A stretch of 64,000 bases of DNA from an uncultured Verrucomicrobiota bacterium (lineage in GTDB: Bacteria > Verrucomicrobiota > Verrucomicrobiia > Limisphaerales > UBA1319). Position 1 is the first letter of the stretch. The number at the start of each line of letters is the position of its first letter. Below the pieces are notes generated by a model that saw only the letters and a program-made list of their open reading frames with translations, did no database searches and was not told the DNA's origin. The translations under genes were made by a program, and so were the position numbers. Positions 4,958-52,441 of the stretch are shown one piece after another. The stretch lies in contig CAYWIM010000001.1 in NCBI GenBank assembly GCA_964458325.1, forward strand, positions 4,975 through 68,974. Reading direction: 5' to 3'.

Positions 4958-5844
4958 GGTCGGGAATCGGGGGCGTGAGGGGCCGGGACAGGGAGGGAGG
5001 CATGGCGGAGAGCGAGGATCTCGAGCAGCTGAGCGAGGATCTCGGAGCGGTCGCGGCCTTCGAGGCCGAGCGCCAGCTGAGCGACGAGGAGGCCGTAGGG
5101 GAGGCCGATATCGTAGCGTCTGCCGCGGATTTCGTGGGCCAGGTATTGCTCCTGGCGGCTGAGCTCGGCGAGGGCGGGGGCGAGCTGGATGGGGGATGCG
5201 GGGGGCGGGTGGGATTGGATGAGGCGTTCGAGCAGCTCCATGACGGCGGCGGTCAGGACATGCATGCCGAAGAAGCAGAGGTAATGGCCGTGGCGCAGGC
5301 CGGGCACGATGAGGCTCTGCTCGGCCTGGGTGGGGGTGGGTTTTTCGAGGACGGTCTCGATGGCGTAGAGGCCGGCGGAGCCGGGGAGGAGGCGGCCGCC
5401 GACGGCGCCATAATAGGGGAGCTTGCTTTCGTGGGTGGCCTGGACGGCGGAGACGGCGCACTGGTGCTGGCGGGCGACATCGATCAGCTGCTGGGCGCAG
5501 TTGCGCCGCTCGTGGCTGACGTAGAGGTGGTCGCCGACGAGGAGCAGAAAGGGGTCATGTCCGACGAATTGGCGGGCGCAGTGGACGGCGTGGCCGAAGC
5601 CGAGGGGCGGGTCCTGGGCGATGAAGTGGAGGCGGCCGGCGTGCGCTCCAGCGGCGGCGGCGAAGGAATGTTCCTGGTGGGGAGGCAGGATGAGCGCGAT
5701 CTGATCGATGCCGGCCGCCAGGACCTCTTCGATGATGATCTGGAGGGCGGTCTTGGATTCGCCGTCCCTGTCGACCAAGGTCTGGAGGGGGAGGGTCTGC
5801 TGGTTGCGGCCGGCGGCGGTCACGATGGCTTTCTTGATTTCCAC
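4954..5844 (-). CDS. Sugar-phosphate nucleotidyltransferase (GalU/RmlA-like)
   Basis: [16 protein letters not shown] matches the NTP-transferase loop, with PLGFGHAV and LVGDHLY further in. The ORF's first ATGs lie in low-GC sequence that looks non-coding. GTG 5844 is preceded by AGGAA and fits the family N-terminus. The start is uncertain (5844 vs 5943/5967). Confidence 0.75.
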
Positions 5845-10045: not shown

Positions 10046-10136
10046 TCTCGTGCTTGGGCGGCCGAAGGAGGGATGGGGCAATTCAGGGCCGCCCAGCTGA
10101 ATTTCCGTATTGTCGGGATCGATTCCTCTCGGTAGG

Positions 10137-16099: not shown

Positions 16100-16297
16100 C
16101 GGGCGGGCCCGAGCATGGTCGAAGCGAGCGAGGGTTGGCGGGTGCGGGCGGAGAGTTCGATGCGATCGGGTGGGGGGCAAGAAAAACGTTTGGGTTTGGC
16201 CGGAAACTTGCTTAAAGTGATGGCGGAACAGCGTGCGAGGCGAGATGCGGACGGGGACGAGCAACTGGTTTGACATTGTAGCGGCGATCCAGGAAGA

Positions 16298-18058
16298 ATG
16301 GATGGAAATCCGCGCGGGCGACCTGCCGCGCTGAAACAGAGCACTGTGGCAACCAAAGACGATTATTTAGTGGATTTTCTGGTGGACATGGGGGTGGTCA
16401 ACCAGAGCGACCTGGCGCCGGTTCGGACCGAGGCTGATTCGACGGGGGAGGGGGTCGTGGATCTGCTGCTGGCGCGCAATCTGATCAAGCCGGCGGATGT
16501 GACGAGGGCCAAGGCGGCTCAATTCGGGGCGGAGGTGGTCAGCCTGGGTGACATGCGTCTGTCGGACGACGTGATTTCGGCGATCCCGAGGCACATCGCG
16601 AAGCGGTACAAGGTGGTGCCCCTTTACCGGAACAACGGGAGCATCACCGTGGCGCTCAACGATCCGGCCGACCTCGACACGATCGACAGCCTGCACCACT
16701 TGCTGAACCAGGAGATCGAGGTGCGGGTGGCGACCGAGGAGGACATCGACCAGGCGATCAACAAGTATTACGGGTCCTCGGACGACTCGGTCGGGAAGAT
16801 GATCCAAGAGATCACCGAGGGGGAGGTGGACATCGGGCTGGTGGGGGCGAACCTGAAGGAGGCCGATGACGGTTCGGTGGTCGACGCGGACGCACCCATC
16901 ATCAAGCTGGTGAACACGCTGATCGTGGAGGCGTTCAAGGCGCGGGCGTCGGACATCCATCTCGAGCCCCTGGAGAAGCGGTTTCGGGTGCGGTATCGGA
17001 TCGACGGGATGCTGCACGAGATCAAGAGCCCTCCCAAGCGCCTCCAAGCCGCCATCCTCAGCCGCATCAAGATCCAGTCGAACATGTCGATTGCGGAGAG
17101 GCGGATACCGCAGGACGGCCGCATCCAGATGGCGGTGGTGGGGAAGACCATCGACCTGCGTGTTTCCTGTCTGCCCACGACGCACGGCGAGAGCATCGTG
17201 ATGCGTATTTTGGACAAGGAAGGCTTGAAGCTGGGGCTGCCGGAGCTTGGGTTCTTCACGGATGACCAGCAGATCTTCGAGCGTCTGATCGGGCTGCCCG
17301 ACGGCATATTGCTGGTCACCGGACCGACCGGTTCCGGCAAGACCACGACGCTCTACGCGGTGCTCCACTACATCAATCGCCCCGACCGGAAGATCATCAC
17401 CGTCGAGGATCCGGTGGAGTACGTGATGTCGGGCATCAACCAGGTGCACGTGAACGAGACGGTGGGATTGACGTTTGCGGCGGCGCTGCGGTCGATTTTG
17501 CGGCAGGCGCCCAACGTGATCATGGTGGGTGAGATTCGCGACATGGAGACCGCCACGATTGCCATCAACGCGTCGCTGACGGGCCACCTGGTGTTTTCGA
17601 CCTTGCACACGAACGATGCCCCGAGCGCGGTGACGCGGCTGATCGACATCGGGGTGAAGCCGTTCCTGGTGGCGTCGTCGACGCGGGCGCTGATGGCGCA
17701 GCGCCTGGTGCGGCGGGTGTGCCGGCGATGCGGCGCGCCTTACCAGCCAAGCGAGGCGGAGTTGCATTCCCTGCGGGTGGATCCGGCCGATCTGGCCAAG
17801 GCCACCTTTCAGAAGGGCAAGGGGTGCCCGGACTGCAAGAACACAGGCTTCCGGGGCCGGTTTGGGATCTTTGAGATATTCGTGATTGACGACGAGGCAA
17901 GGAAGCTGATTTACGACAAAGTGTCCGCCACGGTGTTGCGGGCGCGGGCGCGGGAGATGGGGATGCGGACGCTGCGGGAGGACGGGACGCGGAAGGTGCT
18001 GGCGGGGCTGACCTCGCCGGAAGAGGTGATCCGGGCCACGATCAGCGATCTCGAGTAG
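16298..18058 (+). CDS. GspE/PilB-family secretion/pilus-assembly ATPase (paralog 1)
   Basis: N-terminal T2SSE_N-like domain, Walker [11 protein letters not shown], Asp and His boxes, and the tetracysteine CRRC...CPDC. Start is ATG 16298; GTG 16346 is possible. Confidence 0.9.
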   Translation: MDGNPRGRPAALKQSTVATKDDYLVDFLVDMGVVNQSDLAPVRTEADSTGEGVVDLLLARNLIKPADVTRAKAAQFGAEVVSLGDMRLSDDVISAIPRHIAKRYKVVPLYRNNGSITVALNDPADLDTIDSLHHLLNQEIEVRVATEEDIDQAINKYYGSSDDSVGKMIQEITEGEVDIGLVGANLKEADDGSVVDADAPIIKLVNTLIVEAFKARASDIHLEPLEKRFRVRYRIDGMLHEIKSPPKRLQAAILSRIKIQSNMSIAERRIPQDGRIQMAVVGKTIDLRVSCLPTTHGESIVMRILDKEGLKLGLPELGFFTDDQQIFERLIGLPDGILLVTGPTGSGKTTTLYAVLHYINRPDRKIITVEDPVEYVMSGINQVHVNETVGLTFAAALRSILRQAPNVIMVGEIRDMETATIAINASLTGHLVFSTLHTNDAPSAVTRLIDIGVKPFLVASSTRALMAQRLVRRVCRRCGAPYQPSEAELHSLRVDPADLAKATFQKGKGCPDCKNTGFRGRFGIFEIFVIDDEARKLIYDKVSATVLRARAREMGMRTLREDGTRKVLAGLTSPEEVIRATISDLE

Positions 18059-18103
18059 CGGGGATTCGCCGGGGCGGGAGTGAGAATGCGAATTTGAGGT
18101 TTT

Positions 18104-19198
18104 ATGTCATATTCGATGTCGGATTTATTGCAGCTGGTGGTGGCGGAGGGGGCCTCGGACCTCCACCTGCGGGTGGGATCGCCGCCGGTGATCCGGGTCC
18201 ACGGCGTGCTGCATCGGGTGGAGGGGCCTTCGCTGAAGCCGGAGAACACCGAGGAGCTCATGCGGAGCATCAGCTCGGAGGATCATATCCAGCAGGTTCG
18301 GGAGCGGGGGGGGGCGGATCTGGGGTTCGCGTTTGGTGATCTGGCCCGGTTCCGGGTGAGCATATTCAAGGAGAAGGGCAACTTCGGCGTGGTGGCGCGG
18401 CAGATCCCGAGCAAGCTGCTGACGATGGAGCAGATCGGGCTGCCGCCGTCGGTGAAGGAGTTGCTCTACAAGCCGCGCGGGCTGGTGCTGGTGACGGGGC
18501 CGACCGGGTCCGGGAAGACGACCACGCTGGCCTCGATGATCGACATCATCAACATGGAGCGGGAAGACGCGCACATCATCACCGTGGAAGATCCGATCGA
18601 GTATTACCACACGCACAAGAAATCCCTGGTGACCCAGCGCGAGGTGAACGTGGATGTTCCGACGTTCTCGGAGGCGCTGCGGCGGGCATTGCGCCAGGAT
18701 CCGGACGTGATTCTGGTCGGCGAGTTGCGGGATCTGGAGACGATGGATGCGGCGATCACGGCGGCGGAGACGGGCCATCTGGTGTTTGGGACTTTGCACA
18801 CGACGGGCGCAGCCAAGACCATCGACCGGCTGGTGAACGCATTTCCGGTGACGCAGCAGGAGCAGATCCGGATTCAGCTTTCGACGGTGCTGCAGGCGGT
18901 GATTTCGCAACTGCTTTTGCCTCGCTGCGACAAGCCGGGGCGCGTGGCGATCTTCGAGGTGATGATCAACACGCCCTCGATCAGCGCGCTGATCCGGGAC
19001 AACAAGACGTTCCGGATCAACTCGGACATCCAGACCGGGGCGAAGTATGGCATGGTCACCCTGGACAGCTTCCTGCTCGAGAAGTATCAGATGGGGCTGA
19101 TATCGCAGGAAGAGGTGATCACCAAGGCCCAGGATCCGACTTCGGTCCTGCACAAGCTGGGAGAGCTGGAGGCGGCCCGGGCCGCTTCGGCAGCGTAG
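18104..19198 (+). CDS. pilT: PilT-type pilus retraction ATPase
   Basis: 364 aa with no N-terminal extension. [16 protein letters not shown], Walker [11 protein letters not shown], and the PilT-specific [20 protein letters not shown] (AIRNLIRE-like) motif. Confidence 0.92.
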
Positions 19199-19224
19199 CG
19201 ATCATGAACGGATGACTTGCCGGT

Positions 19225-20928
19225 ATGCCTGATCTTCAATCCTTCCCGATCCTGACCATCATCCGCGAGCGCGGGTTGGCGGACGACATGCAGCTCGAGG
19301 AGGTCGTGCAGGAGCACGGCCGCTCGGGCAAGCCGGTATCGCAGCTGCTGCAGGATTTCGGGATCATGGACCCGGACACTCAGCTCCAGGTCATCGCGGA
19401 GCATCTGGGCACGGAGGTGGTGGACCTGCGGGGCCGGGAGATCCCGGCGGAGGTGATCCAGGCGGTGACACCGGAGACGGCGCGGATGTATCAATGTCTG
19501 CCGGTGGCGCTGTATGGGGCGACGCTGCAGCTGGCGCTGGCGGACCCGTTGAACCCGGCGGTGATCGACGAGCTGGGGTTCGTCATCGGCAAGGAGATCC
19601 AGGTGGTGGTGGCGGATCCGGGCCTGATCGGGCAGGCGATCGGGCGGTATTACGCGGAGGGATCGAGCTCGGTCACGGACGTCCTGAAGGATCTGGGCGC
19701 CGAGTTCGATTTTGGAAAGGACACCGACGAGGCGGCGAGCGTCCAGCCGGACGCGCTGGAATCGCTGGCGAACGAGACGCCGATCATCAAGTTCGTGAAC
19801 CTGGTTCTGAGCCAGGCGATCCAGGACCGGGCCAGCGACATCCATTTCGAGCCGTTCGAGGACGAGTTCAAGATCCGCTACCGGGTGGACGGCGCGCTGT
19901 ATGAGATGGCGCCTCCGCCCAAGCACCTGGCGCTGCCGGTGACCTCCCGCATCAAGGTCATGGCGAACCTGGACATTGCGGAGAGGCGACTTCCCCAGGA
20001 CGGCCGGATCAGCCTGCACCTTGCGGGGCGGATGGTGGACCTTCGGGTATCGACGCTGCCGACGCAGTTTGGGGAGTCGGTGGTGCTGCGCGTGCTCGAC
20101 CAGAGCGCGATCAAGCTGGAGCTGGAGAGCTTGGGGATGCCCAAGATGATCCTCGATTATATGGTCGAGACCATTCAGATGCCCAACGGCATCGTGATTG
20201 TGACCGGCCCGACGGGCTGCGGCAAGACCACCACGCTCTACTCCTGTCTGCGCAGGGTGAACTCGATCGATTCGAAGCTGCTGACGGTCGAGGATCCGGT
20301 CGAGTACGACATCGAGGGGATCATGCAGGTTCCGGTGCACGAGGCGGTGGGGATGACGTTCAGCAAGGCGCTGCGGTCGTTCCTGCGGCAGGATCCGGAC
20401 ATCATCATGGTGGGGGAGATGCGCGATCTGGAGACCTCGCAGATTGCGATTCAGGCGTCGCTGACGGGGCATCTGGTGCTGAGCACGCTGCACACGAACG
20501 ACTCGAGCGGGGCGGTGACGCGAATGATCGACATGGGGGTCGAGCCGTTTCTGGTCTCCTCGACCCTGATGGCGGTGCTGGCACAGCGGTTGGTCCGGAC
20601 GGTCTGCAAGAAATGCCGGACGCCCTTCGAGCCGACCGAGCACCAGCTGTCGCTGCTGAACCTGTCGCCGCACGACATTGGCGACAAGGTGTTCTACTAC
20701 GGCCGCGGCTGCTCGATGTGCAACGACACGGGCTATCGCGGCCGGAAAGGCATCTTCGAGCTTCTGGGCATCGTAGACGCCGTCCGGGTCCTGATCAACG
20801 AGCGGGCCCCGACGCTGGTCCTGCGCCAGAAGGCGATCGAGCTCGGGATGGTCACCTTGCGGGAGGACGGATTGCGGGCGATATTCGACGGAGAGACCAC
20901 GATCGAAGAGATATTGAAATACACCTGA
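19225..20928 (+). CDS. GspE/PilB-family secretion/pilus-assembly ATPase (paralog 2)
   Basis: T2SSE_N-like N-terminus, Walker [11 protein letters not shown] and tetracysteine CKKC...CSMC. Clearly diverged from paralog 1. Confidence 0.9.
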
Positions 20929-20941
20929 TCCGAGGTTGGCT

Positions 20942-22261
20942 ATGCCGAAGTTCAATTACGTGGCGATGGATTCCCGCGGGAAGGAGACCAAGGGCACGCT
21001 CGAAGTGACCAGCCAGAGCGAGGCCATTGGGCGGCTGAAGGAGATGGGTTTTTTCCCGACCAAGGTGGTCGAGGCCGACAAGGTCAAGGAGAAGCCCGCC
21101 CGGAAATCAGGCCAGCCGGCCGAGAAAGGCAAGGGCAAGGGCGGCTTCAACATCAATCTCAATTTCAAGATTCCATTCCTGGGCGGCCGGGTCAAGAGCA
21201 AGGTCCTGGTCACCTTCACGCGCCAGCTGGCGACGCTGGTGGATGCGGGGCTGCCTTTGCTGCGGGGGCTCCGGGTGCTCGAGAAGCAGGAAAAGACGCC
21301 TGCGCTCAAGGGGATCATCGGGCAATTGGCGACGGCGGTCGAGGGGGGCAGCACCTTTTCGGAGGCGCTGGCGCAGCATCCGAAGGTGTTCAACCGGCTG
21401 TTCGTCAGCATGGTCAAGGCCGGAGAGATGGGCGGCGTGCTCGAGGTGGTGCTGAACCGCTTGTCGGAGTTCATGGAGAAGGCGCAGAAGATCAAGGGCA
21501 AGGTGGTCGCCGCCATGTTCTATCCGGTGTCGGTGCTGACGGTGGCGGTGGTGATCCTGGCGGTGCTGCTGATCTACGTGGTGCCCAAGTTCGAGGAAAT
21601 TTTCCGCGACATGCTCGAGGGGGCCGAACTGCCCGGGTTCACCCAATTTGTCCTCATGATCAGCCGCCAGGTGAAAGACAACTTCCTGGTGACGGCCGCC
21701 TGCGTGATCGGCGTCGTCATTTTCTTCAAGCTCATCGTGAGGACCAAGATCGGACGCAAGCTGTTCGATCGCTTCAAGCTGCTGGTTCCCGCGATTGGCC
21801 CGGTCATCAGCAAGGTGGCGATCTCCCGGTTCACGCGGACGCTGGGGACGCTGGTGAGTTCGGGCGTTCCGATTTTGCAGGCGCTGACGATCGTCAAGGA
21901 GACATCAGGCAACGTCATCATCGGGCAGGCGGTGTCGGATGTTCATGAAAGTGTCAAGGAAGGCGAAACGATCACGGCGCCACTCGAGGCGGCGAACGTG
22001 TTTCCGCCCATGGTGATCAGCATGGTCGATGTCGGTGAGCAGACCGGTGCCCTGCCGGAGATGCTGATGAAGATCGCTGACAATTATGACGAGGAGGTCG
22101 ACAATGCGGTGTCGGCGATGACGTCGCTATTGGAGCCCATCATGATCGTCTTTCTGGCGGTGATTGTGGGCAGCATTGTGATTGCGCTGTTCATGCCGCT
22201 GGTGGTTCTGATGGATCGGATGGGACAAGCTGGCGACGAGAACCGGAAGAGCGGAGATTAA
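20942..22261 (+). CDS. PilC/GspF-family inner-membrane platform protein
   Basis: Two T2SSF repeats and three TM helices, with the typical N-terminus MPKFNYVAMDSRGKE. The listed start 20936 is TTG. ATG 20942 has GAGG 6 nt upstream. Confidence 0.9.
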   Translation: MPKFNYVAMDSRGKETKGTLEVTSQSEAIGRLKEMGFFPTKVVEADKVKEKPARKSGQPAEKGKGKGGFNINLNFKIPFLGGRVKSKVLVTFTRQLATLVDAGLPLLRGLRVLEKQEKTPALKGIIGQLATAVEGGSTFSEALAQHPKVFNRLFVSMVKAGEMGGVLEVVLNRLSEFMEKAQKIKGKVVAAMFYPVSVLTVAVVILAVLLIYVVPKFEEIFRDMLEGAELPGFTQFVLMISRQVKDNFLVTAACVIGVVIFFKLIVRTKIGRKLFDRFKLLVPAIGPVISKVAISRFTRTLGTLVSSGVPILQALTIVKETSGNVIIGQAVSDVHESVKEGETITAPLEAANVFPPMVISMVDVGEQTGALPEMLMKIADNYDEEVDNAVSAMTSLLEPIMIVFLAVIVGSIVIALFMPLVVLMDRMGQAGDENRKSGD

Positions 22262-22312
22262 CGGTAAAGTCGGCGCTCGAACTTAAAAAAGTCGATTACC
22301 TCGTTTTTGCAT

Positions 22313-22342
22313 TTGACAATTCACCTGTGTATCGCGTAAATA
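22313..22342 (+). promoter_or_regulatory. Candidate sigma70-type promoter for brnT/brnA
   Basis: TTGACA (22313-22318), then 17-18 nt, then GTAAAT/TAAATA, in a low-GC gap 43 nt upstream of the brnT ATG. The -10 element is weak. Confidence 0.3.
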
Positions 22343-22384
22343 CTTTGTAGTTACATTGCATGGGCGATTGATATACGAGCTGGT

Positions 22385-22672
22385 ATGGAGTTCGACTGGT
22401 TGAATCCGCCCTTTGAAATGGACAGTTCTTTGTCACCGAGGGATATCGAAGAATCGTTCGAGGATCCCTTTGCGGTGCGGTTGTTGCCGGATTCGTCCCG
22501 GTTCTCGGTCCAGGCGCGGTATTTCAACTTGGGCAAGTCGGCCTCGGGTTTGGGGATTATCAGTGTGTATCGGACCAACGGGAGGCAGATCCGAGTGATT
22601 CACGCGCGCGCCTTTGTGCCGGAAGAACAATTTTTCTACCAACGCAAGGCGAGTCAGATGTTATCGCGATGA
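22385..22672 (+). CDS. brnT: BrnT-like (DUF497) type II toxin
   Basis: FDW near the N-terminus, IEESFEDPFAV, and C-terminal IRVIHARAFVPEEQFFY, which parallels the family pattern IRIISAR-x-A-x-x-x-E-x-x-x-Y. Low-GC codon usage relative to neighbours. Confidence 0.7.
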   Translation: MEFDWLNPPFEMDSSLSPRDIEESFEDPFAVRLLPDSSRFSVQARYFNLGKSASGLGIISVYRTNGRQIRVIHARAFVPEEQFFYQRKASQMLSR

Positions 22673-22944
22673 ATGCGGTGGGCAGCTGGGAAGAGATTCC
22701 GCTCTTCGACAGCGAGGAGGCGGAGGCGGCCTTTTGGGCCGAGAACCGTCCGGATCTGCGGCTGATGGAGATGGCGGTGGCGGCGGGGTCGGAGAACACG
22801 GAATCGGTGACCATCACGCTTCGGATGGATCCGCGGATGCTGGCGCGGATCAAGCGTCTGGCGCGGAGCCGGTACCTGAACTATCAGAGCATGATCAAGC
22901 AATGGCTCAGCGAGAGGCTGGAGCAGGAATTCCGGGATCGCTGA
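22669..22944 (+). CDS. brnA: BrnA-like (CopG/RHH) antitoxin
   Basis: ATGA overlap with brnT. FDSEEAEAAFWAENRPD, then an RHH-like segment ITLRMDPRMLARIKRLARSRYLNYQSMIKQWLSERLEQE, as in BrnA antitoxins. Confidence 0.7.
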   Translation: MNAVGSWEEIPLFDSEEAEAAFWAENRPDLRLMEMAVAAGSENTESVTITLRMDPRMLARIKRLARSRYLNYQSMIKQWLSERLEQEFRDR

Positions 22945-22992
22945 CGGTGGGGGGCGCATCGATGGCGCCGTGTGACGAGGCAATGGATTGAA

Positions 22993-23688
22993 ATGAAAAC
23001 GACGGATCCAGTTCCGAGTGGTCTCTTGTGCGGCGGGAGATTGGCGGCGGCCTTGGCGGGGCCGGCGCCGAAGGAATCCAAGGGGTTCACCTTGATCGAG
23101 CTGCTGACGGTGATGTCGATCATCGCGCTGGTGGCGGGGCTGGTGGTGGGGCTGGCGCCGGCGGCGTCGCGATCGATGAAGCTCAAGCGCGCGCAAGGGG
23201 ATCTGCGGCAGCTGGCGTCGGCAATCGAGGAGTTCAAGCAGCAGTATGGGTTTTATCCGCCGGACAATCGGGATCCGGCGACGCAACGGAACGCGGATCC
23301 GGCGATCAACCCTCTGTATTACGAGCTGACGGGGGTTTTGTTCAACGAGGGGGCGAAGACCTACCAATCGCCCGAGCGGCCCACGACGCTCACGGCGGCG
23401 GCCGTCGAGCAGGTGTTTCGGGTCAAGGGATTCCTGAATGCGGCCTCGAGCGTGCAGGGGACGCGCAACTTCTTCCGGGGGGGCCGGATGCCGGCGGTGG
23501 AACAGGTGACCGTGGGGGCTCAGAAGGTGGATGTTTTCGTGGCGCCGGTGCGGGGGGTGGCCGGACCGACTCAGGCCAATCCATGGCGATACGTGTCGTC
23601 CTCGCCCACCAACAATTCGAGCACCTTCGATCTGTGGGCGGAGGTGGTGATTGGCAAGGATGTGACGATTGTGAGCAACTGGGATTGA
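22993..23688 (+). CDS. Prepilin-type N-terminal cleavage/methylation protein (pseudopilin 1)
   Basis: KG|FTLIELLTVMSIIALVAGLVVG is the class III signal, with Glu at +5. The listed start 22972 is GTG. ATG 22993 gives a 31-aa leader. Confidence 0.75.
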   Translation: MKTTDPVPSGLLCGGRLAAALAGPAPKESKGFTLIELLTVMSIIALVAGLVVGLAPAASRSMKLKRAQGDLRQLASAIEEFKQQYGFYPPDNRDPATQRNADPAINPLYYELTGVLFNEGAKTYQSPERPTTLTAAAVEQVFRVKGFLNAASSVQGTRNFFRGGRMPAVEQVTVGAQKVDVFVAPVRGVAGPTQANPWRYVSSSPTNNSSTFDLWAEVVIGKDVTIVSNWD

Positions 23689-24492
23689 ATGGCGGCGAAC
23701 AGCAAACCATCACTTGTTATGAGGAGTCTAGGAGCTTCGGGGAATCGGAACGGGACCGGCGGTTTCACGCTGATCGAGCTGCTGACGGTGATCAGCATCA
23801 TCGGCGTGCTGGCGGGCATGCTGCTGCCGGTGCTGGCGCGCGCCAAGCGGCAGGCGAAGATCAGCCAGGTCAAGGTGGACATCAGCAACTTCGCCAATGC
23901 CATCAGCTCGTATTACAGCACCTACAACCGGTATCCAACATCGAGCAACGTGGCCAACTCGGTCGCGGGGAAGGCAAACACGCCGGACTTTACGTTCGGT
24001 ACTGACGGAGTGAATAGAAATCCGCCGCTGCCAATAATTCGCAATGAGTTCGGCAATGGCTTCAACGCCAACAACGCGGAAGTGATCGCCATTTTGCGGG
24101 ACATGGAGGCCTACGGAAACGGGACGCGCACCGTCAATTTTGGCCATGCGAAGAATCCGCAAAAGATCAACTTCTTGAGCGCGAAGGACGTGAGCGACGC
24201 GCGGCTGCCGGGGGTAGGGCCGGACGGTGTTTACCGGGACACGTGGGGCAATCCGTTTATCGTCTCGATGGACATGAACTACGACGATCGCTGCCGGGAT
24301 TCGTTTTATCGGCGGGGGTCGGTATCGGGGCAGGGGACCAGCGGGTTGATCAAGGCGGATGCGGGCAACAATGACAGCTACGAGGCGCGGATGCCGGTGA
24401 TGGTATGGTCGCTGGGGCCGGACGGGATGGCCGATCCGGGAGTGCCGGCGAACGCGGGGGCGAACAAAGACAACGTATTGAGCTGGAAATAG
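23689..24492 (+). CDS. GspG-like pseudopilin (pseudopilin 2)
   Basis: GG|FTLIELLTVISIIGVLAGMLLPVLARAK, with C-terminal WGNPF and SLGPDG motifs typical of GspG-type major pseudopilins. An alternative ATG lies at 23719. Confidence 0.8.
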   Translation: MAANSKPSLVMRSLGASGNRNGTGGFTLIELLTVISIIGVLAGMLLPVLARAKRQAKISQVKVDISNFANAISSYYSTYNRYPTSSNVANSVAGKANTPDFTFGTDGVNRNPPLPIIRNEFGNGFNANNAEVIAILRDMEAYGNGTRTVNFGHAKNPQKINFLSAKDVSDARLPGVGPDGVYRDTWGNPFIVSMDMNYDDRCRDSFYRRGSVSGQGTSGLIKADAGNNDSYEARMPVMVWSLGPDGMADPGVPANAGANKDNVLSWK

Positions 24493-24549
24493 GCTGTGAA
24501 AACCTTCGAGGTCCAGAAGAGGGCATGCCGGAGCGGGCCGGGGAAGGTC

Positions 24550-25296
24550 ATGGGTGGGCGGCGGGCCTTCACCCTGCTCGAGCTGCTGGTGGTGCTGGGG
24601 ATCCTGGGTCTGCTGGCGGGGCTGGCGCTGCCGGCGCTCAAGGGGCTTGGGCAGTCAAATACGATGGCGACGGCGAGCCGCCAACTGCTGGACGATCTGG
24701 CCCTGGCGCGCCTGGCGGCGATCAGCCAGCGCACCACGGTCTACATGGCCTTTGTCCCGCCGAACGCGGGGGCGCATCTGTCGGCGGGGCTGACGGAGCC
24801 GCAGCGCCGGCAGCTGACGAACCTGCTGGGGGGGATCCACACGAGCTACGCGCTGCTGGCCAAGCGGAGCGTGGGCGACCAGCCTGGACGGGAGTCTCCG
24901 CGATACATCACCGAATGGAGGCGGTTGCCGGAGGGGGTGTTTATCGCCACCAACGAGTTCGCGTATTTGGGGGCGGCGAGCTGGAACCTCTTTGCCAATC
25001 CGACCAACCGGCCGCTGGCCTATGAGGTGCTGCCGTTTCCGACGGCATCGAGCCCGACGATGCCGCTGCCCTGCGTGGTGTTCAACTCCCAGGGCCAGCT
25101 GGCGCGCGGGGTGGACGAGTTCATCACGCTGGCTCGGGGGAGCATCTTCTATCCGAAGGATGCGAGCGGGGCTTATGTGCCGGGCGCGCCGGATGTGCGC
25201 GAGGTGCCTCCGGGCAATTCGACCAACCTATTCAACCGGGTCTACGTCAACTGGCTGACGGGCCGCGCCCGGGTGATCAAGCCGGAAATCCAATGA
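24550..25296 (+). CDS. Prepilin-type protein, GspH/FimT-like (pseudopilin 3)
   Basis: MGGRRA|FTLLELLVVLGILGLLAGLALPALKG. Position -1 is Ala, not Gly. The listed start 24496 is GTG. ATG 24550 has GGGAAGG just upstream. Confidence 0.75.
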   Translation: MGGRRAFTLLELLVVLGILGLLAGLALPALKGLGQSNTMATASRQLLDDLALARLAAISQRTTVYMAFVPPNAGAHLSAGLTEPQRRQLTNLLGGIHTSYALLAKRSVGDQPGRESPRYITEWRRLPEGVFIATNEFAYLGAASWNLFANPTNRPLAYEVLPFPTASSPTMPLPCVVFNSQGQLARGVDEFITLARGSIFYPKDASGAYVPGAPDVREVPPGNSTNLFNRVYVNWLTGRARVIKPEIQ

Positions 25297-26081
25297 ACCT
25301 GCCACGGATTGGACCTGATGGATCGACGGGCCGGGGCCGCGCGCCGCGCGTCTGCCGCTCGGGATTCACGATGATCGAGATCGCGCTCTGTCTGGCGATC
25401 ATCGGTTTCGCCCTGGTGGCGATCATCGGCATCCTGCCGACGGGATTGCAGGTGCAGAAAGACAACCGGGACGACACCATCGTGAACCAGGACGGGACCT
25501 ATTTTTTAGAGGCGATCCGGCAGGGGGCGGCCCGGCTGGATCACCTGGCCAACTACGTGGACGAGATCAGCGTGGTGACGAGCAATTTCACAGGAGGAAT
25601 CTTCACATATAGCGTCACCAACATAACCAACGGCGCGCAGATCATAGGAATGCTCAGCACTCCCAAGTATCAATCGATCAACGGCGTGCCGAGCGTGAAC
25701 ACCGTGACCGCGAAGGTCCGCTCGATGAGCGGTGCGGCGGTGAATGCCGTCTCGAGCGAATTTGCGTTCAGCTACCTGTTGCGTTCCGAGGTGGTGCCCT
25801 ACTCGGCGTTCGCCACGAACTCGGTCTTCACGAACCATGCGGCGGCCAATCTGCCGCCGGAGGCGGTGGCGGAGCGGCTCGAGCTGAAGGCGCGGGCGGA
25901 TCAGCTGCACACGAACCTGTTCGAGGTGCGGCTGACCCTGCGCTGGCCGGTGTTCGGCGCGCCGGGCAACTGGCGAACGGGCGGCAACCAGCAGGTCTTC
26001 AGGACCCTGGTGACGGGGAAGCTCATGCAGGCGGTGGGAGAGCCGTTGTATTTCTTTGCGCCGGCCATCTACGGAAACTGA
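25293..26081 (+). CDS. Prepilin-type protein (pseudopilin 4)
   Basis: ATGA overlap with the upstream gene. RSG|FTMIEIALCLAIIGFALVAIIGILPTGL. From memory, this resembles the Verru_Chthon cassette B/C type N-terminus. Confidence 0.75.
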   Translation: MNLPRIGPDGSTGRGRAPRVCRSGFTMIEIALCLAIIGFALVAIIGILPTGLQVQKDNRDDTIVNQDGTYFLEAIRQGAARLDHLANYVDEISVVTSNFTGGIFTYSVTNITNGAQIIGMLSTPKYQSINGVPSVNTVTAKVRSMSGAAVNAVSSEFAFSYLLRSEVVPYSAFATNSVFTNHAAANLPPEAVAERLELKARADQLHTNLFEVRLTLRWPVFGAPGNWRTGGNQQVFRTLVTGKLMQAVGEPLYFFAPAIYGN

Positions 26082-26088
26082 TGCCGTC

Positions 26089-27048
26089 ATGAACATGCAA
26101 TTCGAACGTGGGCCGATCCGCCGCTGGCGGGCGGCGGGCTTTTCTCTGGTCGAGGTGTTGGTGGTGGTGGGGCTGCTGGTGATGATCGTGTATGCATTGA
26201 TCAGCGTATTCGATCGGACGCAGAGAGCGCTGCTGAGCTCGACGGCGCAGGTGGACGTGCTCGAGCCGGGGCGGGCGGCGCTGGATCTGGTGGGGCGCGA
26301 TTTAGAGGAGATGGCGCCGACGGGCCTGGCTCAAGGCACGAACCTGCTGGCCCTGATCAGCTATCCGGCCGGGGGCCGCCCCTTGCTTTGCCAGGACCTG
26401 AGCGACGGCAGCCGGCGCACCAATTTCCTCGAGGAAGTGTTCTTCATGGTCCGGTCGAACAATTTCTGGCTGGCCAAGGGCTTTTTCGTGGCGTCGCCGA
26501 CCAATCCGACGATGCGGGTGACCAATGGGATCGGAACCTTGTATCGGTTCCTGTCGGTGACGCGGGTGACTTCGAGCTGGCTGGACACGAACTGGATGTT
26601 CGAGCTGCGCCGGCAGTATCTGATCCGGACCAACGCGAATCCGGTGGCGGACGGGGTGATTCATTTTCAGATCCAGCCTTACGACCGGTTCGGGGTGCCA
26701 TTTCAGTTTGGGCGGGCGGATCTGGACACGAACTATTTCGTGGCGCATTACAACGCGGCGTATCAGGCGGTGTCGGTGCCGTCGGCCTTTCCGAACTGGG
26801 GGATCACCAACGTGGTGCTGCACCAGGCGGCGAGGGCGGGCACGAACGACATCTGGGCGACCGAGAGCTTTTTCCTGGGGGATGCGCTTCCGGCGAGCGT
26901 CGATCTGGAGCTGGCGCTGGTGGAGCCGCAGGTGGTCGACCGGTATCGGGCGATCCCCTATCCCGCCAGCCTCGAGTATCTGGAGCGGCAGGCGGGCGCG
27001 GTGCACTTGTTTAAACGGCGGATACCCATTCGCAACACTCAGCCATGA
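26089..27048 (+). CDS. Prepilin-type protein, GspJ/PilW-like (pseudopilin 5)
   Basis: MNMQFERGPIRRWRAAG|FSLVEVLVVVGLLVMIV. The listed start 26056 is TTG inside the previous gene. ATG 26089 follows that gene's stop. Confidence 0.7.
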   Translation: MNMQFERGPIRRWRAAGFSLVEVLVVVGLLVMIVYALISVFDRTQRALLSSTAQVDVLEPGRAALDLVGRDLEEMAPTGLAQGTNLLALISYPAGGRPLLCQDLSDGSRRTNFLEEVFFMVRSNNFWLAKGFFVASPTNPTMRVTNGIGTLYRFLSVTRVTSSWLDTNWMFELRRQYLIRTNANPVADGVIHFQIQPYDRFGVPFQFGRADLDTNYFVAHYNAAYQAVSVPSAFPNWGITNVVLHQAARAGTNDIWATESFFLGDALPASVDLELALVEPQVVDRYRAIPYPASLEYLERQAGAVHLFKRRIPIRNTQP

Positions 27049-30000
27049 ATCGTTCCGCACAACGCGGTGTCGCACTGGTGGTGACCCTGATCATGCTGTC
27101 GGTGGTGACCTTCATGACCGTGGCCTTTCTGGCGCTGAGCCGGCGCGAGCGGGCGTCCGTGACGGTGACAACGGATCAGGCGACGGCGTCGCGGATGGCG
27201 GACATTGCCGTGGCGCAGGCGCAGGCGGAGATCGTGTCTCGGATCCTGGCGCGGTCCAACGCATTCCAGTTCGATTTCCTGGTGTCGACCAGCTATTATC
27301 AGCCGGCCGGGTTCAGCCCTGGCGTGGCCCATCCGGAGAACGTGCATTACGAGCGGCGGGCCGACGGCAACATGCTGACCGAGATCGACCGGATCCAAAA
27401 CATCGCCAATCTTCAGTATCACGCCCGGCCGCCGGTCTACATTCGCACGAACAGCAACCTGTCGGCGCCGCTGGATTTCCGGTTCTATCTGGATTTCAAC
27501 CGCAACGGGTGGTTCGAGACGAACGGGCCGGGGCTCGAGCTGGACGCGCAGGGCCGGCCGATCGCGGGGCTCTCGAACTTTTTCGTGGGCGATCCGGAGT
27601 GGCGGGGGATTCTCGAGCGCCCGGAGCTGCCGCATTCCTCGAGCAATCGTTTTGTGGGGCGGCTGACGTATCTGGTTTTGCCGCTGGGGAAGGCCCTCGA
27701 TTTCAACTACATTCACAACCAGGCCAAGCGTCCGATCAATCCGGCCGCGGACGGTTTTGCGCGCAACCAGGGGCCGGGGACATGGGAGATCAACCTGGCG
27801 GCCTTTCTGCGGGCGCTGAATACGAACCAATGGGACTACCTGTATCGGCCTGCGTTGAACCAGGTGAGCGGCGGCGCGGCCTTCTCGAACGCGACGGACA
27901 TCCTCCGCTATCGATACACGAACGATTACCGGGGGCTGGCCAGCGTGGCGAGCTTGTTCGGCCCGATGGGCGCGGTCGAGCACGCCTTGGATTTCGTGGA
28001 CGGCTACAGCGACGGCCCGCGCCAGACCAACACGTTCCCGCTGCTGATCGACAACGACATGCCCGACCGGCCGTGGCCGGGCAGCGACAACCCGCGTCTG
28101 TATGGGGATGTGCAGGAGCTGCTGGATCCGTTTAAGACCTCGATTGATTTTACCAACCGGCTGATGACCACGTTCAACCGGGTCAACCGGCTGACTTCCT
28201 ATGACCGGTACACGCTCTACCGGCTATTGGCGCAGATGGGCCTGGACAGCGATCCGGAGTGGTCCGACAAGATCCACCTGAACTACCGGAACGATCCGGG
28301 ATTCACCCCGACGAATTTCGCGGCATGGCCGCCCCTGGCGTTCTTCACGAACGCGGCGGACCGGCTGCTGCGCCGGCAGCTGGGGCTGAGCCTGACCAAC
28401 ATCCCGCTCTATCCGACCAACTTTTATTCGGCGCCGGTGCACCAGCTGCTGCAGATGGCCGCAAACATCTACGATGCCACAACCAACCGGGTGTGGAACG
28501 GTTCGACCAACCTTCCGAGCGTGTTTCGTCCGGTGTTCATGTATGATGGCACGAACGTGTTCATCAGCGGGTATGTGGAGGCGACGAACACGTTTTTCAC
28601 GAACACATGGCTGGACCTGAACCTGGCGGCGCATCGGAACCTGCTGGTGGAAAACAACGGCGTGTTGCGGTCCAACGTCAATCTATTCGGCGTGCCCGTC
28701 GTGATTGGCGCCAAGAAGGGGTATCCGAACTTCAACGAGTTCTCGCTGCAGACGGCGGTGCTGGTTTCGCGGAAGCTGGAGGTGCGCAAGCCGGCCCCCA
28801 TCGCGCGGCCCAACCAGACCAACCAGCTCTACGTCATGGGGATATCGAACGTGTTCGGCCTCGAGGCATGGAATTCCTACACGCAGACCTATGCGCGTCC
28901 GATCATCCTCCGGGTGACGAACGTGTTCACCCTGACGCTGCTGACCAACGGCGTTCCATTCAACCGCTGGAGCAACGTGGTGAGCATGGCGACCAATGTG
29001 CCGGCGGGGACGTGGGCGGGGCAGGATTTCCGGCTGCCTTTGCACACGAATGTGATCACGCTGTCGAACGCGGCCTACAGCGCCCGGCTGGGGCGGTTTC
29101 TTCCCAACACGGTATTCGAGGTCAACACCAATTATGATGTGCCGCAGTGGGAGCTGGGGATCACCAATCGGCTGCAGTATGTCGCGCTGGATCCGGCCAG
29201 CGCCCGGGTGATCGATTTCGTCAACCTGGAGAACCTGACGGCGGGGATCGACATCACAGCCGAGCTGATTGGCAACCAGTCGATGCTCGGGGGGGGCGAG
29301 CCTTCGCAGGCAGGCAGCTTCTGGCTCACCAACCGTCTGGGGGGCGGTCTGCAGGGGGTGACGATCGGCGTGCTGAACCAGATCAACGAATCGCTGGGCC
29401 AATCCGGCGCGACGAATAACGCGCTGTGGCAGGAGTACAGCCAGGATCCCGTGTCCGGCTTCACCAAGGAGAAAGCCATCGAGCTGTTCCGCGTCTTCGT
29501 GGGCCTGGGGCCGCGGAATCCGGCGCGCTATCCGCTGGTGCAGATGCAGACCGAGCTGGGGAACAGCACTTCGCGCCAGGCGCCCTACTCGCCGGTCCGC
29601 AAGCTCTACATGAACTCGACCTGGCAGGTGAACGACCCGCTGGTGCACTACACGTGGGAGGATCTGCTCGACCTCGAGCGGACCAACAACATCCAATACG
29701 CGATCCCGCCGACGAGCACGCCGACCAACTCGAACCTGGGAGCGGTCAACCGCCGCTACCGGCCCTGGGGGGGGAACCCGAACATCTCGAGCGACACCAA
29801 CGCATACAACACGGCCCTGAAGGACCCGATGGTGCGGCAGTCGGACGATTGGGATTTCCCGACCAACAAGTTTCCGAACGTGGGATGGCTGGGCCGCGTG
29901 CACCGGGGGACGCCCTGGCAGACGGTGTATCTGAAGTCATCGGTCGCGGAGAGCAACGCGTGGTTTTTCTGGTCCATCAATCCGCTGTCGCATCCGACCA

Positions 30001-30617
30001 ACGACTGGCGCCTGTTCGATCTGTTCACGACGGCGCCTCATCCCAACGCCAGCCGCGGCCAGCTCTCCGTGAATCAGACGAACCTCGCGGCGTGGGCGGC
30101 GGTGCTGGGCGGCGTGTCGGTCGTGAGCAATGCGCCGGCGTCGGGTTTTCGGTCGAATGTCCTGACGGAGCTGTTCATCGAGCCGGACTCCGATGCGGTC
30201 CGGACGATGGTCCAAGACATCATGAACGCTCGGAGGATGCGTCCGAGCGGTTCATTCGACGCGGTGGGCCAGGTGCTGGCTGCGCCGGCGTTATCGGTGG
30301 CTTCCCCGTATTTGAATCGGGGGGATGCGAACCTGCCGGACGCCGCGGTGGAGCGGATCCCGCAGCAGATCATGTCGCTGCTGAAGCTGGGCGAGCCGCG
30401 GGTGGCGGTCTACGTGTTTGGGCAGGCGCTGAGGCCGGCCGACCGCTCGCTGGTGGTGGCGCCGGGCCAGCCTTATCATCTGCTCTGCACGAATTACCAG
30501 ATTACCGCCGAGGTCGCCGCCAAGCACGTGCTGCGGTTCGAGTATGGGCCGGTCTCGACCAACGTGACTCGGGTTCAAGTGATCCCCGAACGGTACCAAT
30601 TTCTGTCGAACGAGTGA
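27045..30617 (+). CDS. Giant GspK/PilX-like pseudopilin-associated protein, 1190 aa
   Basis: ATGA overlap with pseudopilin 5. The N-terminus RGVALVVTLIMLSVVTFMTVAFLALSRRE is a GspK/PilX-type uncleaved hydrophobic anchor without Glu5. The rest is a large beta-rich domain I do not recognise. Confidence 0.7.
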   Translation: MNRSAQRGVALVVTLIMLSVVTFMTVAFLALSRRERASVTVTTDQATASRMADIAVAQAQAEIVSRILARSNAFQFDFLVSTSYYQPAGFSPGVAHPENVHYERRADGNMLTEIDRIQNIANLQYHARPPVYIRTNSNLSAPLDFRFYLDFNRNGWFETNGPGLELDAQGRPIAGLSNFFVGDPEWRGILERPELPHSSSNRFVGRLTYLVLPLGKALDFNYIHNQAKRPINPAADGFARNQGPGTWEINLAAFLRALNTNQWDYLYRPALNQVSGGAAFSNATDILRYRYTNDYRGLASVASLFGPMGAVEHALDFVDGYSDGPRQTNTFPLLIDNDMPDRPWPGSDNPRLYGDVQELLDPFKTSIDFTNRLMTTFNRVNRLTSYDRYTLYRLLAQMGLDSDPEWSDKIHLNYRNDPGFTPTNFAAWPPLAFFTNAADRLLRRQLGLSLTNIPLYPTNFYSAPVHQLLQMAANIYDATTNRVWNGSTNLPSVFRPVFMYDGTNVFISGYVEATNTFFTNTWLDLNLAAHRNLLVENNGVLRSNVNLFGVPVVIGAKKGYPNFNEFSLQTAVLVSRKLEVRKPAPIARPNQTNQLYVMGISNVFGLEAWNSYTQTYARPIILRVTNVFTLTLLTNGVPFNRWSNVVSMATNVPAGTWAGQDFRLPLHTNVITLSNAAYSARLGRFLPNTVFEVNTNYDVPQWELGITNRLQYVALDPASARVIDFVNLENLTAGIDITAELIGNQSMLGGGEPSQAGSFWLTNRLGGGLQGVTIGVLNQINESLGQSGATNNALWQEYSQDPVSGFTKEKAIELFRVFVGLGPRNPARYPLVQMQTELGNSTSRQAPYSPVRKLYMNSTWQVNDPLVHYTWEDLLDLERTNNIQYAIPPTSTPTNSNLGAVNRRYRPWGGNPNISSDTNAYNTALKDPMVRQSDDWDFPTNKFPNVGWLGRVHRGTPWQTVYLKSSVAESNAWFFWSINPLSHPTNDWRLFDLFTTAPHPNASRGQLSVNQTNLAAWAAVLGGVSVVSNAPASGFRSNVLTELFIEPDSDAVRTMVQDIMNARRMRPSGSFDAVGQVLAAPALSVASPYLNRGDANLPDAAVERIPQQIMSLLKLGEPRVAVYVFGQALRPADRSLVVAPGQPYHLLCTNYQITAEVAAKHVLRFEYGPVSTNVTRVQVIPERYQFLSNE

Positions 30618-52391: not shown

Positions 52392-52441
52392 GGAGATGTT
52401 GTGCGTCTATTGGATTGAACGGGAATGATTTAAAATCAAAT

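Follow-up and report, generated by a model that had tools for sequence, protein, structure and literature searches.

Type IVa pilus systems, such as those of Myxococcus xanthus and Pseudomonas aeruginosa, have a pilB-pilT-pilC motor cluster and a fimU-pilVWX-pilY1 operon, in which the minor pilins are followed by PilY1 and in which the pilin PilX, like GspK of the type II secretion system (T2SS), lacks Glu5. To our knowledge, the classical T2SS has no retraction ATPase, and the surface machinery of the Verrucomicrobiota, a phylum abundant in soil, freshwater and gut, is almost unstudied. In Acinetobacter baylyi, according to a review (PMC11656802), phylogenetically distinct PilB and TfpB serve one pilus machine together with PilT.

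Here we analyze a cassette of genes within a stretch of 64,000 nucleotides (the window) from an uncultured Verrucomicrobiota bacterium. The gene set is real and type IV pilus-like, a variant of the type IV filament system, and is described neither by any curated family model nor in the papers found by a literature search. By comparing the cassette with related loci and with family models, we arrive, with moderate confidence, at the view that it is a filament system specific to the Verrucomicrobiota, composed of a motor module and a fibre module. With type IVa pili it shares a clustered extension ATPase, PilT and PilC, class III signal peptides, and a four-member minor-pilin set that ends in a Glu5-less member and is followed by a large non-pilin with an ordinary signal peptide. 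It differs from them in its second extension ATPase, located between pilT and pilC; in having no pilMNOPQ or pilD nearby; in its PilX-position pilin of 1190 residues without a PDB match; in its 2894-aa subtilase, found where the PilY1 beta-propeller protein sits; in the BrnT/BrnA-like pair that heads its pilin operon; and in ATPases that do not reach the PilB equivalog cut-off.

Extent, gene order and modules of the cassette

The cassette consists of 13 genes, all on the forward strand between 16298 and 39317 (Table 1), in the order ATPase 1, PilT, ATPase 2, PilC, BrnT, BrnA, pilin 1, pilin 2, H, I, J, K and S8, with -4 to 123 nt between consecutive genes. The initial annotation had described two ATPases around PilT, then PilC, a gene pair and six prepilin-type genes, and this content and order are confirmed, as are its ATGA overlaps at 25293 and 27045, to which we add a third at 22669. 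Its boundary holds in part: the genes from 16298 to 30617 are as described, but the conserved unit continues to 39317 through the S8 protease gene. Synteny comparison recovered the complete order from ATPase 1 to S8 in other Verrucomicrobiota genomes, and the cassette is found in several hundred species-level genomes of the phylum. The locus is made up of two separable modules: of 45 loci, 26 have the motor and fibre blocks side by side and 19 have them apart, and the complete chromosome OY760937.1 has the fibre block at 1.07 Mb and, standing alone, the motor block at 4.69 Mb.

Table 1. Coordinates and sequence features of the cassette (window positions).
Feature	Position	Strand	Evidence
ATPase 1, PilB/GspE type	16298..18058	+	586-aa ORF; Pfam T2SSE 450 bits and MshEN
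PilT retraction ATPase	18104..19198	+	TIGR01420 446 bits, cut-off 319.1
ATPase 2, paralogue of ATPase 1	19225..20928	+	T2SSE 450 bits and MshEN
PilC/GspF platform protein	20936..22261	+	Pfam T2SSF twice, 221.7 bits
Sigma-70-type promoter	22313..22342	+	TTGACA 22313-22318, 18-nt spacer, TAAATA 22337-22342
Operator-like conserved segment	22336-22380	+	Tandem TGTA-N2-TACA units
BrnT-like small protein, 95 aa	22385..22672	+	Pfam BrnT_toxin 19.9 bits
CopG/BrnA-like ribbon-helix-helix protein, 91 aa	22669..22944	+	PF12441 CopG_antitoxin 41.6 bits
Pilin 1, candidate major subunit	22972..23688	+	G↓FTLIELL; N_methyl 30.6 bits, above gathering score; ~200 mature residues
Pilin 2, candidate major subunit	23689..24492	+	G↓FTLIELL; N_methyl 26.4 bits, above gathering score; ~243 mature residues
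Minor pilin, GspH/FimU position	24496..25296	+	A↓FTLLE; N_methyl above gathering score
Minor pilin, GspI/PilV position	25293..26081	+	G↓FTMIE; weak PilV and TIGR02598 matches, ~18 bits
Minor pilin, GspJ/PilW position	26089..27048	+	G↓FSLVE; weak TIGR02599 and ComGE matches
Giant minor pilin, GspK/PilX position, 1190 aa	27045..30617	+	G↓VALVV, no Glu5
Giant secreted S8 subtilase, 2894 aa	30633..39317	+	Peptidase_S8 131.5 bits, Laminin_G_3 79 bits

Pfam scans bore out the earlier statement that no secretin, PilMNOP or prepilin peptidase of the A24 family lies within 16298-30617. GspC, L, M and D were likewise found neither in 16298-39317 nor in the cassettes of the relatives examined, in none of which does the cassette contain a secretin, PilMNOP/GspLM or an A24 peptidase. 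An A24 peptidase is absent from the window as a whole, as judged by Pfam scans of every ORF with coding-type GC3 and by tblastn with E. coli GspO, and the only secretin of the window, from 59558 onward, belongs to a T2SS locus. Since the secretin, the alignment genes and the A24 peptidase are absent from the cassette, a complete machine is not demonstrated; the prepilin peptidase, the alignment proteins and the outer-membrane channel must be encoded elsewhere.

The motor module

The two ATPases that flank pilT are paralogues, 46% identical, and form sister groups (83% bootstrap, neighbour-joining). Walker A, Asp box, Walker B, His box and tetracysteine motif are intact in both, and judged by these motifs both extension-type ATPases look catalytically competent. 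Orthologues of ATPase 1, 76-87% identical to it, are about 570 aa long, and its real start possibly lies some 15 codons downstream; ATPase 2 is 63-83% identical to its orthologues and is always followed by PilC within 7-20 nt. Neither ATPase reaches the cut-off of an equivalog model: on the GspE model (TIGR02533) they score 627.4 and 621.2 bits, just under 630.25, and on the PilB model (TIGR02538) 624.9 and 610.9 bits, with a cut-off of 675.65. Their best matches among PDB sequences are PilB of Geobacter and Myxococcus, while in a neighbour-joining tree of the catalytic domains, built with few references, both join the GspE-type references and not the PilB-type ones with 90% bootstrap support.

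PilT, in contrast to its two neighbours, passes its equivalog cut-off, has intact motifs and is 69-90% identical to its orthologues, in agreement with its first identification as a genuine retraction ATPase; its presence suggests that the fibre is most likely both extended and retracted. The platform protein scores 406 (Myxococcus-type) and 365 bits on PilC equivalog models, against 700, and 399.9 bits on the GspF model, against 424. The motor module combines a retraction ATPase and a platform protein with two hexameric ATPases of the extension type that are paralogues, and a single PilC most likely serves both of the latter, in parallel to PilB and TfpB of A. baylyi. The likeness to that pair lies in the presence of two predicted extension ATPases and PilT; the cassette ATPases are not TfpB orthologues, however (468.5 and 442 bits on the TfpB equivalog NF053534, cut-off 850), and they are each other's nearest relatives, flanking pilT in one operon.

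The fibre module

The fibre module carries a conserved promoter of its own and opens with the BrnT/BrnA-like pair. A promoter resembling TTGAC[AT]-N15-20-TAAATA is present in 52 of 57 loci, and the operator-like segment shows at least 80% column conservation across GTAAATACA.TGTA..ACA; the motif occurs once in the window (0 expected by chance), and the region 22313..22384 has no Rfam family match. The BrnT-like protein, found in 57 of 57 related loci and with 29 invariant columns, scores below the gathering score of BrnT_toxin (34.5), yet all 17 orthologues compared match this family and no other (best E 6.7e-6); searched by profile, the PDB sequences gave no match. The BrnA-like protein, whose gene starts within that of its partner at the 22669 overlap, exceeds the PF12441 gathering score of 28, as expected of a CopG/BrnA-type antitoxin, is 64-84% identical to its orthologues and has the conserved core SVTITLR.DPRML.RIKRLAR.R.LNYQSMIKQWLSER.

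The pair had at first been noted as a toxin-antitoxin (TA) pair between PilC and the prepilin-type genes. It is not an insertion that interrupts the locus but a fixed and highly conserved member of the cassette: each of the 57 related loci that extend sufficiently far upstream has it, with identities of 60-84%, above those of the pilins, and it always accompanies the pilins. As in BrnT/BrnA type II TA systems, the toxin gene leads and overlaps its partner by 4 nt, the ribbon-helix-helix antitoxin is above the Pfam threshold, a BrnT-like fold signature occurs in all orthologues, and the repeat-bearing promoter fits autoregulation. Unlike such systems, the pair keeps one place in the pilin operon, conserved by vertical descent across at least 57 species-level genomes; it is better conserved than the neighbouring genes, has a sub-threshold BrnT_toxin match and shows no sign of mobility. 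The ribbon-helix-helix partner most likely binds the TGTA-N2-TACA repeats, which overlap the -10 element, and would in this way control the operon.

After the pair come two large major-type pilins and then a predicted four-member initiation and tip set, H, I, J and K. PF07963 (N_methyl) is above its gathering score in three of the six genes, five have a G/A↓F..E processing motif, and the sixth has G↓VALVV. Pilin 1 (alternative ATG start at 22993) is 27-43% identical to its orthologues and pilin 2 35-57%; on the GspG model TIGR01710 they score 34.2 (N-terminus only) and 49.2 bits, below the cut-off of 88.85. The H-position pilin matches GspH at 31.7 bits, below cut-off and at the N-terminus only, and the J-position pilin has an alternative TTG start at 26056 and orthologue identities of 26-40%; which pilin takes the H, I or J position was judged only from gene order and weak N-terminal matches.

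The giant pilin represents a large family of its own, confined to the Verrucomicrobiota: searches yielded at least 1803 homologues, and 2699 clusters (50% identity) at E<=1e-3, all those that carry a name coming from this phylum, and the family lies outside all Pfam and NCBIfam models. No Pfam domain was found in the protein, and its matches to GspK and to TIGR02600 are weak and limited to the N-terminus. An AlphaFold2 model (mean pLDDT 85.7, pTM 0.79) has an N-terminal helix of 67 residues, and the PDB gave no match either to the fold of this model or by profile. With no Glu5 and a globular domain of about 1100 residues, the K-position member should cap the fibre.

The last gene encodes the subtilase, with PPC, P-domain and LamG_3 modules, many repeats and an N-terminal signal-like segment. 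All 57 orthologues keep its catalytic D/H/S triad unchanged, and in every one of the 64 loci that have 3 kb or more of sequence there, the giant pilin is followed by an S8-like gene. The protease gene occupies the position of PilY1 in type IVa pilus operons, and its product may ride on the fibre tip or be a substrate that the fibre exports.

Relation to secretion systems and proposed role

A secretion role fits equally well with the grouping of the ATPases with GspE and with the GspG-like N-termini of the pilins. The cassette could then be a dedicated T2SS-like exporter, in which a short periplasmic pseudopilus tipped by H-I-J-K drives the co-encoded giant S8 protease out via a secretin, with PilT resetting the piston, a scheme that we consider doubtful. 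For it speak the 90% bootstraps, GspE scores that are at least as high as the PilB scores and only 3-9 bits short of the GspE cut-off, pilin N-termini that match the GspG and GspH models, the H-I-J-K order with a Glu5-less K, which is the tip arrangement of a T2SS, and a final gene that always encodes a secreted protease. A GspF-like platform is a further trait in common with the T2SS. Yet the cassette has two ATPases and a PilT that is conserved in the module, lacks GspC, L, M and D in every relative examined, and has major-type subunits 1.5-2 times the size of GspG that score 34 and 49 bits where the GspG model demands 88.85. There is, moreover, a separate T2SS in the same window at 51-64 kb, with the order GspF-G-H-(I)-J-K-L-M and a giant secretin that continues past the window's edge, and its GspG (gene at 52415) passes the same model at 95.5 bits. 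Both the mixture of pilus and T2SS features in the cassette and the lack of an ATPase in this second locus had been noted initially and are borne out. That one cassette ATPase became the motor of this ATPase-less T2SS is improbable, in our judgement, for all that the window holds two assembly ATPases and two platform genes (20936 and 51081, whose products are only ~29% identical). The lack of gspE upstream of gspF is confined to this species and a 96%-identical contig (L082), and no remnant of the gene lies upstream of 51081; relatives with 51-75% GspF identity (L083-L085, L089, L090, L092, L093) have gspE directly upstream. Against a takeover, the dual-ATPase module is also kept in relatives that retain a third, T2SS-linked gspE in a distinct gspE-gspF pair (L016 and L093 of one assembly, and L096), a co-occurrence seen in metagenome-assembled genomes and for one genome judged by accession-number proximity. 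This persistence indicates that the module is intrinsic to the pilus motor and weakens the idea that the two ATPases reflect sharing with the ATPase-less locus. ATPases linked to the T2SS in relatives reach 623 and 652.7 bits on TIGR02533. Neither cassette ATPase is an orthologue of that gspE clade, to which they are 40-46% identical (64-67% within it), with bootstraps of 13% and 0%; the missing gspE may also sit beyond the 64-kb window.

The last four pilin genes had further been likened to the Verru_Chthon cassette (proteins D, B, C and A). The likeness holds for the phylum, for the analogous architecture, a run of four prepilin-like genes of which the last encodes a very large protein (about 1200-1300 aa; 1190 aa here, 1296 model positions there), and for the four models being among the matches in the order D, B, C, A. 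Membership fails on the HMM searches by which the initial annotation had proposed to refute it: protein D (TIGR02596) matches 24496-25296 at 38.1 bits over model positions 1-62 of 196 (cut-off 70), protein B (TIGR02598) 25293-26081 at 18.1 bits over 1-30 of 151 (51.4), protein C (TIGR02599) 26056-27048 at 23.1 bits over 1-58 of 361 (256.5) and protein A (TIGR02600) 27045-30617 at 18.6 bits over 1-56 of 1296 (332.3). All four scores are thus far below the curated cut-offs and confined to 30-62 N-terminal positions, the generic prepilin helix, so that the four genes are not members; none of 36 diverse giant-pilin relatives comes near the TIGR02600 cut-off (best E 1.8e-7; nine also match GspK equally weakly), and the 1190-aa family is distinct. 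A copy of the Verru_Chthon cassette is therefore very hard to credit, and the curated models miss this more widespread cassette.

Returning to the reading of the cassette as a filament system of its own, we tentatively picture, as one possibility among several, a retractable pilus with two cooperating motors, whose giant-pilin tip would present or deliver an active subtilase: a grappling fibre armed with a protease, with which Limisphaerales/Pedosphaera-type Verrucomicrobiota would forage on polymers or make contact with cells, with a domesticated toxin-antitoxin pair as operon regulator. The cassette would be a second natural case of two extension ATPases per pilus motor, here as tandem paralogues that flank pilT. 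A toxin-antitoxin-type pair as a core operon component bears on the domestication of such modules, and the predicted tip pilin of 1190 residues has a confident structural model with nothing alike in the PDB. In these genomes a giant protease, predicted from its sequence to be active, is genetically locked to a pilus tip set.

Gene content of the pilus-like cassette and of its surroundings

The cassette consists of thirteen plus-strand genes at 16298-39317, with intergenic gaps of -4 to 123 nt, in which a motor block (ATPase 1, PilT, ATPase 2 and PilC) is followed by a fibre block of a BrnT/BrnA-like pair, six pilins and a giant S8 protease. HMM searches, N-terminus readings, gene overlaps and Pfam scans agree, and thereby confirm what the initial annotation had observed at this locus. 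All six genes 3' of the BrnT/BrnA-like pair have prepilin-type N-termini: five read G/A↓F(T/S)(L/M)(I/L/V)E, and the sixth, of 1190 residues, reads G↓VALVV and has no Glu5, as is characteristic of the GspK and PilX classes. Minor pilins were assigned to H, I and J by their position. The ATGA overlaps claimed at 25293 and 27045 are both real, and an additional one at 22669 couples the BrnT-like and BrnA-like genes. Secretin and PilM/N/O/P, whose absence had been claimed for 16298-30617, are missing from 16298-39317, where GspC/L/M were not found either (Pfam scan of all open reading frames whose third-position GC marks them as coding), and no A24 prepilin peptidase was found in the whole window by Pfam or by tblastn with E. 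coli GspO. A terminator scan of 15900-23100 gave a count not above expectation.

Features of the window, with the evidence for each
Feature	Position	Strand	Evidence or remark
1274-aa protein	1637-5461	-	partial UDPGP domain only
NrfH/NapC-like cytochrome c	10110-11633	+	multihaem
DUF4143/AAA_14 ATPase	11662-12840	-	
ATPase 1, PilB/GspE type	16298-18058	+	Pfam T2SSE 450 bits, and MshEN
PilT	18104-19198	+	TIGR01420 446 bits (cut-off 319)
ATPase 2, PilB/GspE type	19225-20928	+	HMM scan
Platform protein PilC/GspF	20936-22261	+	HMM scan
-35 TTGACA	22313-22318		conserved in cross-species alignment
-10 TAAATA	22337-22342		inside conserved GTAAATACA.TGTA..ACATTGCATGGGCGATT.AT.TACAA
BrnT-like small gene	22385-22672	+	
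CopG/BrnA-like ribbon-helix-helix protein	22669-22944	+	PF12441 41.6 bits, passes threshold
Giant pilin, K position	27045-30617	+	1190 aa
S8 protease	30633-39317	+	signal-like N-terminus, Peptidase_S8, PPC, P-domain, LamG_3, many repeats
PfkB-family sugar kinase	39242-40252	+	immediately 3' of the S8 gene
6S RNA gene	46607-46788	-	Rfam RF00013 69.4 bits (gathering 46.4), full-length
~1030-aa protein	46999-50091	-	Ig_3, I-set, He_PIG, Calx-beta
GspF	51081-52292	+	T2SS locus
GspG	52415-52960	+	95.5 bits, passes equivalog cut-off of 88.85
GspH, J-like gene, GspK			T2SS locus, in this order
GspL-position 683-aa protein	56509-58560	+	weak PilM-like N-terminus: TIGR01175 29.5 bits, Pfam PilM_2 E 0.017
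GspM			follows the GspL-position gene
Giant secretin	59558-64000, off window end	+	1480 residues with an N0 domain and 15 or more Secretin_N repeats

The window also holds a 6S RNA gene, and its UDPGP protein, cytochrome c and DUF4143 ATPase are unrelated to the pilus cassette.

The last four pilin genes had been likened to the Verru_Chthon cassette of TIGRFAM, and the D, B, C and A models (TIGR02596, TIGR02598, TIGR02599 and TIGR02600) do match them in exactly that order. All four scores nevertheless lie below cut-off (D 38.1 against 70, B 18.1 against 51.4, C 23.1 against 256.5, A 18.6 against 332.3), and each match spans just the first 30-62 model positions, equivalent to the generic prepilin helix; membership is therefore rejected on cut-offs and model coverage. 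A diverse set of 36 giant-pilin relatives was scanned with TIGR02600 and GspK models: weak N-terminal matches to TIGR02600 appeared in 18 (best E 1.8e-7) and equally weak GspK matches in nine, and none of the 36 approached the TIGR02600 cut-off. The resemblance to Verru_Chthon is thus one of architecture and phylum only.

Conserved order, a putative regulatory pair and a giant pilin

A tblastn search of the window's proteins against 80 genome loci shows that the full gene order recurs: ATPase 1, PilT, ATPase 2, PilC, BrnT-like, BrnA-like, pilin 1, pilin 2, H, I, J, K and S8. The two blocks are separable: of 45 informative loci, 26 have the motor block next to the fibre block and 19 lack it on that flank, and on the complete chromosome OY760937.1 the four motor genes stand alone at 4.69 Mb, with the fibre block at 1.07 Mb. 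Carriers also include the complete genome OW818681.1 and a metagenome-assembled genome of Limisphaera (L063). A giant S8 protease gene follows the giant pilin in every locus with at least 3 kb of downstream sequence (64/64), and all 57 orthologues have an unchanged Asp/His/Ser triad, with the oxyanion Asn kept in 54. The PfkB neighbour recurs 3' of S8 in at least 11 related loci (44-51% identical), and could reflect either a conserved neighbourhood or a functional link.

A reading of the toxin-antitoxin pair as an insertion in the cassette is contradicted by its fixed position and its conservation: it lies immediately 5' of pilin 1 in all 57 loci that reach far enough upstream, remains with the pilins when the motor block is elsewhere, and is 60-84% identical across loci (pilins 27-58%, giant pilin 37-51%). 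BrnT_toxin is the sole Pfam family matched, below threshold, in 17 of 17 BrnT-like orthologues tested, and a profile of the BrnT-like protein searched against PDB sequences did not match solved BrnT.

Alignment of the 130 nt 5' of the BrnT-like gene across the 57 loci reveals a -35/-10 layout in 52 of them, with a spacer of 17-18 nt between TTGACA and TAAATA; the conserved stretch around the -10 ends shortly 5' of the BrnT-like start codon. Two tandem TGTA-N2-TACA units of about 11 nt overlap the -10 and the expected start site, and the motif occurs once in the window (0 expected by chance). No Rfam family matched the element, nor did a simple search for inverted repeats over 22240-23000 detect any 5' of the BrnT-like gene; the operator-like element surfaced only through the cross-species comparison. 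Typical operators of ribbon-helix-helix repressors are short tandem palindromes at one-turn spacing. These sequence patterns lead us to infer that the fibre operon may be regulated via this putative operator by the BrnA-like protein, alone or together with its BrnT-like partner.

Homologues of the giant pilin number at least 1803 in a word-indexed search, and an exhaustive search returned 2699 clusters (50% identity) at E<=1e-3, 1401 of them at E<=1e-30; when single genomes per GTDB species were scanned for its pattern, at least 579 giant-pilin stretches were confirmed. The best 150 of the 2699 clusters are full-length close relatives (1150-1450 aa, 43-57% identical) with no precomputed Pfam domain and no bridge to TIGR02600 among them, and their named sources are all Verrucomicrobiota (Limisphaerales, Verrucomicrobiales and Pedosphaera). 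A first structure model, built on 18 sequences, had a poor pLDDT of 50.7; an AlphaFold2 model from 61 sequences (mean pLDDT 85.7, pTM 0.79) starts with a pilin-like helix of 67 residues, after which come large domains of beta-rich and mixed character. Foldseek of this model against the PDB gave no match with E under 0.02, TM scores stayed under 0.1, and a sequence profile matched no PDB sequence. On the homologue, model and PDB searches together, the giant pilin is a lineage-specific subunit in the GspK/PilX position, without a match in the PDB.

Two cassette ATPases and the type II secretion locus

ATPases 1 and 2 are 46% identical over 558 residues, and both retain the Walker A, Asp box, Walker B, His box and tetracysteine motifs. 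Over the whole sequence, the best solved-structure match of both is PilB of Geobacter and Myxococcus; curated GspE and PilB models score the two nearly equally, all just under cut-off. A neighbour-joining tree (319 catalytic-domain columns, 200 bootstrap replicates) was built from the locus orthologues, E. coli GspE and HofB, Vibrio GspE, and Myxococcus and Geobacter PilB, the Vibrio, Myxococcus and Geobacter sequences being rebuilt from PDB alignments. It makes the two ATPases sisters (83%) and groups them jointly with GspE-type proteins rather than PilB (90%), placements that are indicative only because the method is simple and the sampling thin.

A type II secretion system (T2SS) occupies 51-64 kb, and family scans bear out the claim that it lacks an ATPase. 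Its 683-aa GspL-position gene may be a fusion, since the corresponding locus of a relative, L090, holds separate genes of 341, 288 and 324 aa there. The Secretin_N repeats of the giant secretin total 541 bits in Pfam, and its C-terminal secretin domain lies beyond the window end; orthologues in the relatives' contigs L082 and L090 end early likewise. A periplasmic stack of such length is unusual. Just upstream of the locus and divergent from it lies the ~1030-aa protein, which may be cell-surface or secreted; a related fragment is also found 5' of gspF in L082.

A metagenome scan with the GspF of this locus returned four loci. A 554-556-aa ATPase is encoded directly 5' of the gspF orthologue in seven relatives' loci (L083, L085, L089, L090, L092, L093 and L094), and L084 starts inside such a gene; GspF identity to the window spans 51-75% among relatives with an upstream gspE, with L092 at 75%. 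Only two sequences lack the gene at this position, the window and a contig of 96% identity, L082; 50308-51080, 5' of the window's gspF, holds no gspE remnant. The T2SS-linked ATPases form one group (64-67% identical mutually, 40-46% to either window ATPase), and bootstrap support for a cassette ATPase joining it is 13% for one and 0% for the other. Among metagenome-assembled genomes, GCA_024233305.1 carries the fibre cassette (L016) alongside a separate gspE-gspF pair (L093); GCA_024233215.1 carries the complete cassette, both ATPases included (L096), and, judged from adjacent accession numbers, the same pair. The L093 pair (JACKPV010000036.1, 8323-11203) stands alone, with no pseudopilin or secretin genes 3' of it, so this clade has scattered T2SS genes as well.

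A relocated T2SS gspE is thus rejected as the general origin of a cassette ATPase, as the proteins are not orthologous and relatives retain all three. Because relatives with a separate gspE-gspF pair keep the cassette with its non-orthologous ATPases, the dual-ATPase arrangement is intrinsic to the pilus motor module and no by-product of sharing. It is possible that in this species one cassette ATPase took over the T2SS, although gspE may equally lie outside the window.

A proposed filament machine

The cassette most likely encodes a type IV filament machine akin to T4aP. Its main rival, a T2SS-like exporter dedicated to the S8 protease, would fit the GspE-side placement of the ATPases in the tree and the GspG-like pilin N-termini, but against it stand the PilT of the cassette, its large major subunits and the fact that the window has a separate T2SS. 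In the proposed filament machine, two extension motors and PilT would work on a single PilC platform, with a shaft built of the two large major-type pilins. There is precedent in Thermus for two pilus types from one machine (PMC13039148), and in the PilB and TfpB of Acinetobacter baylyi for two extension motors on one machine (PMC11656802, section 11). The cassette ATPases are not TfpB orthologues (468 and 442 bits against a TfpB cut-off of 850). The four-member minor set would prime assembly and finish at the tip, where the giant subunit lacking Glu5 would be the outermost, and the subtilase would be either carried by the tip complex or exported by the fibre. In T4aP systems, the PilY1 gene sits last in the fimU-pilVWX-pilY1 operon; here the S8 subtilase gene occupies its slot.

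Literature searches found no paper on this cassette, on Verru_Chthon or on Limisphaerales pili, and the giant pilin falls outside all Pfam and NCBIfam models. Each component of the cassette is of a known kind, and it is their combination that has not been described: tandem paralogous extension ATPases on either side of pilT, an operator-like conserved element followed by a toxin-antitoxin-type pair at a fixed place, and a giant putative tip pilin without a PDB match together with an obligatory giant protease.
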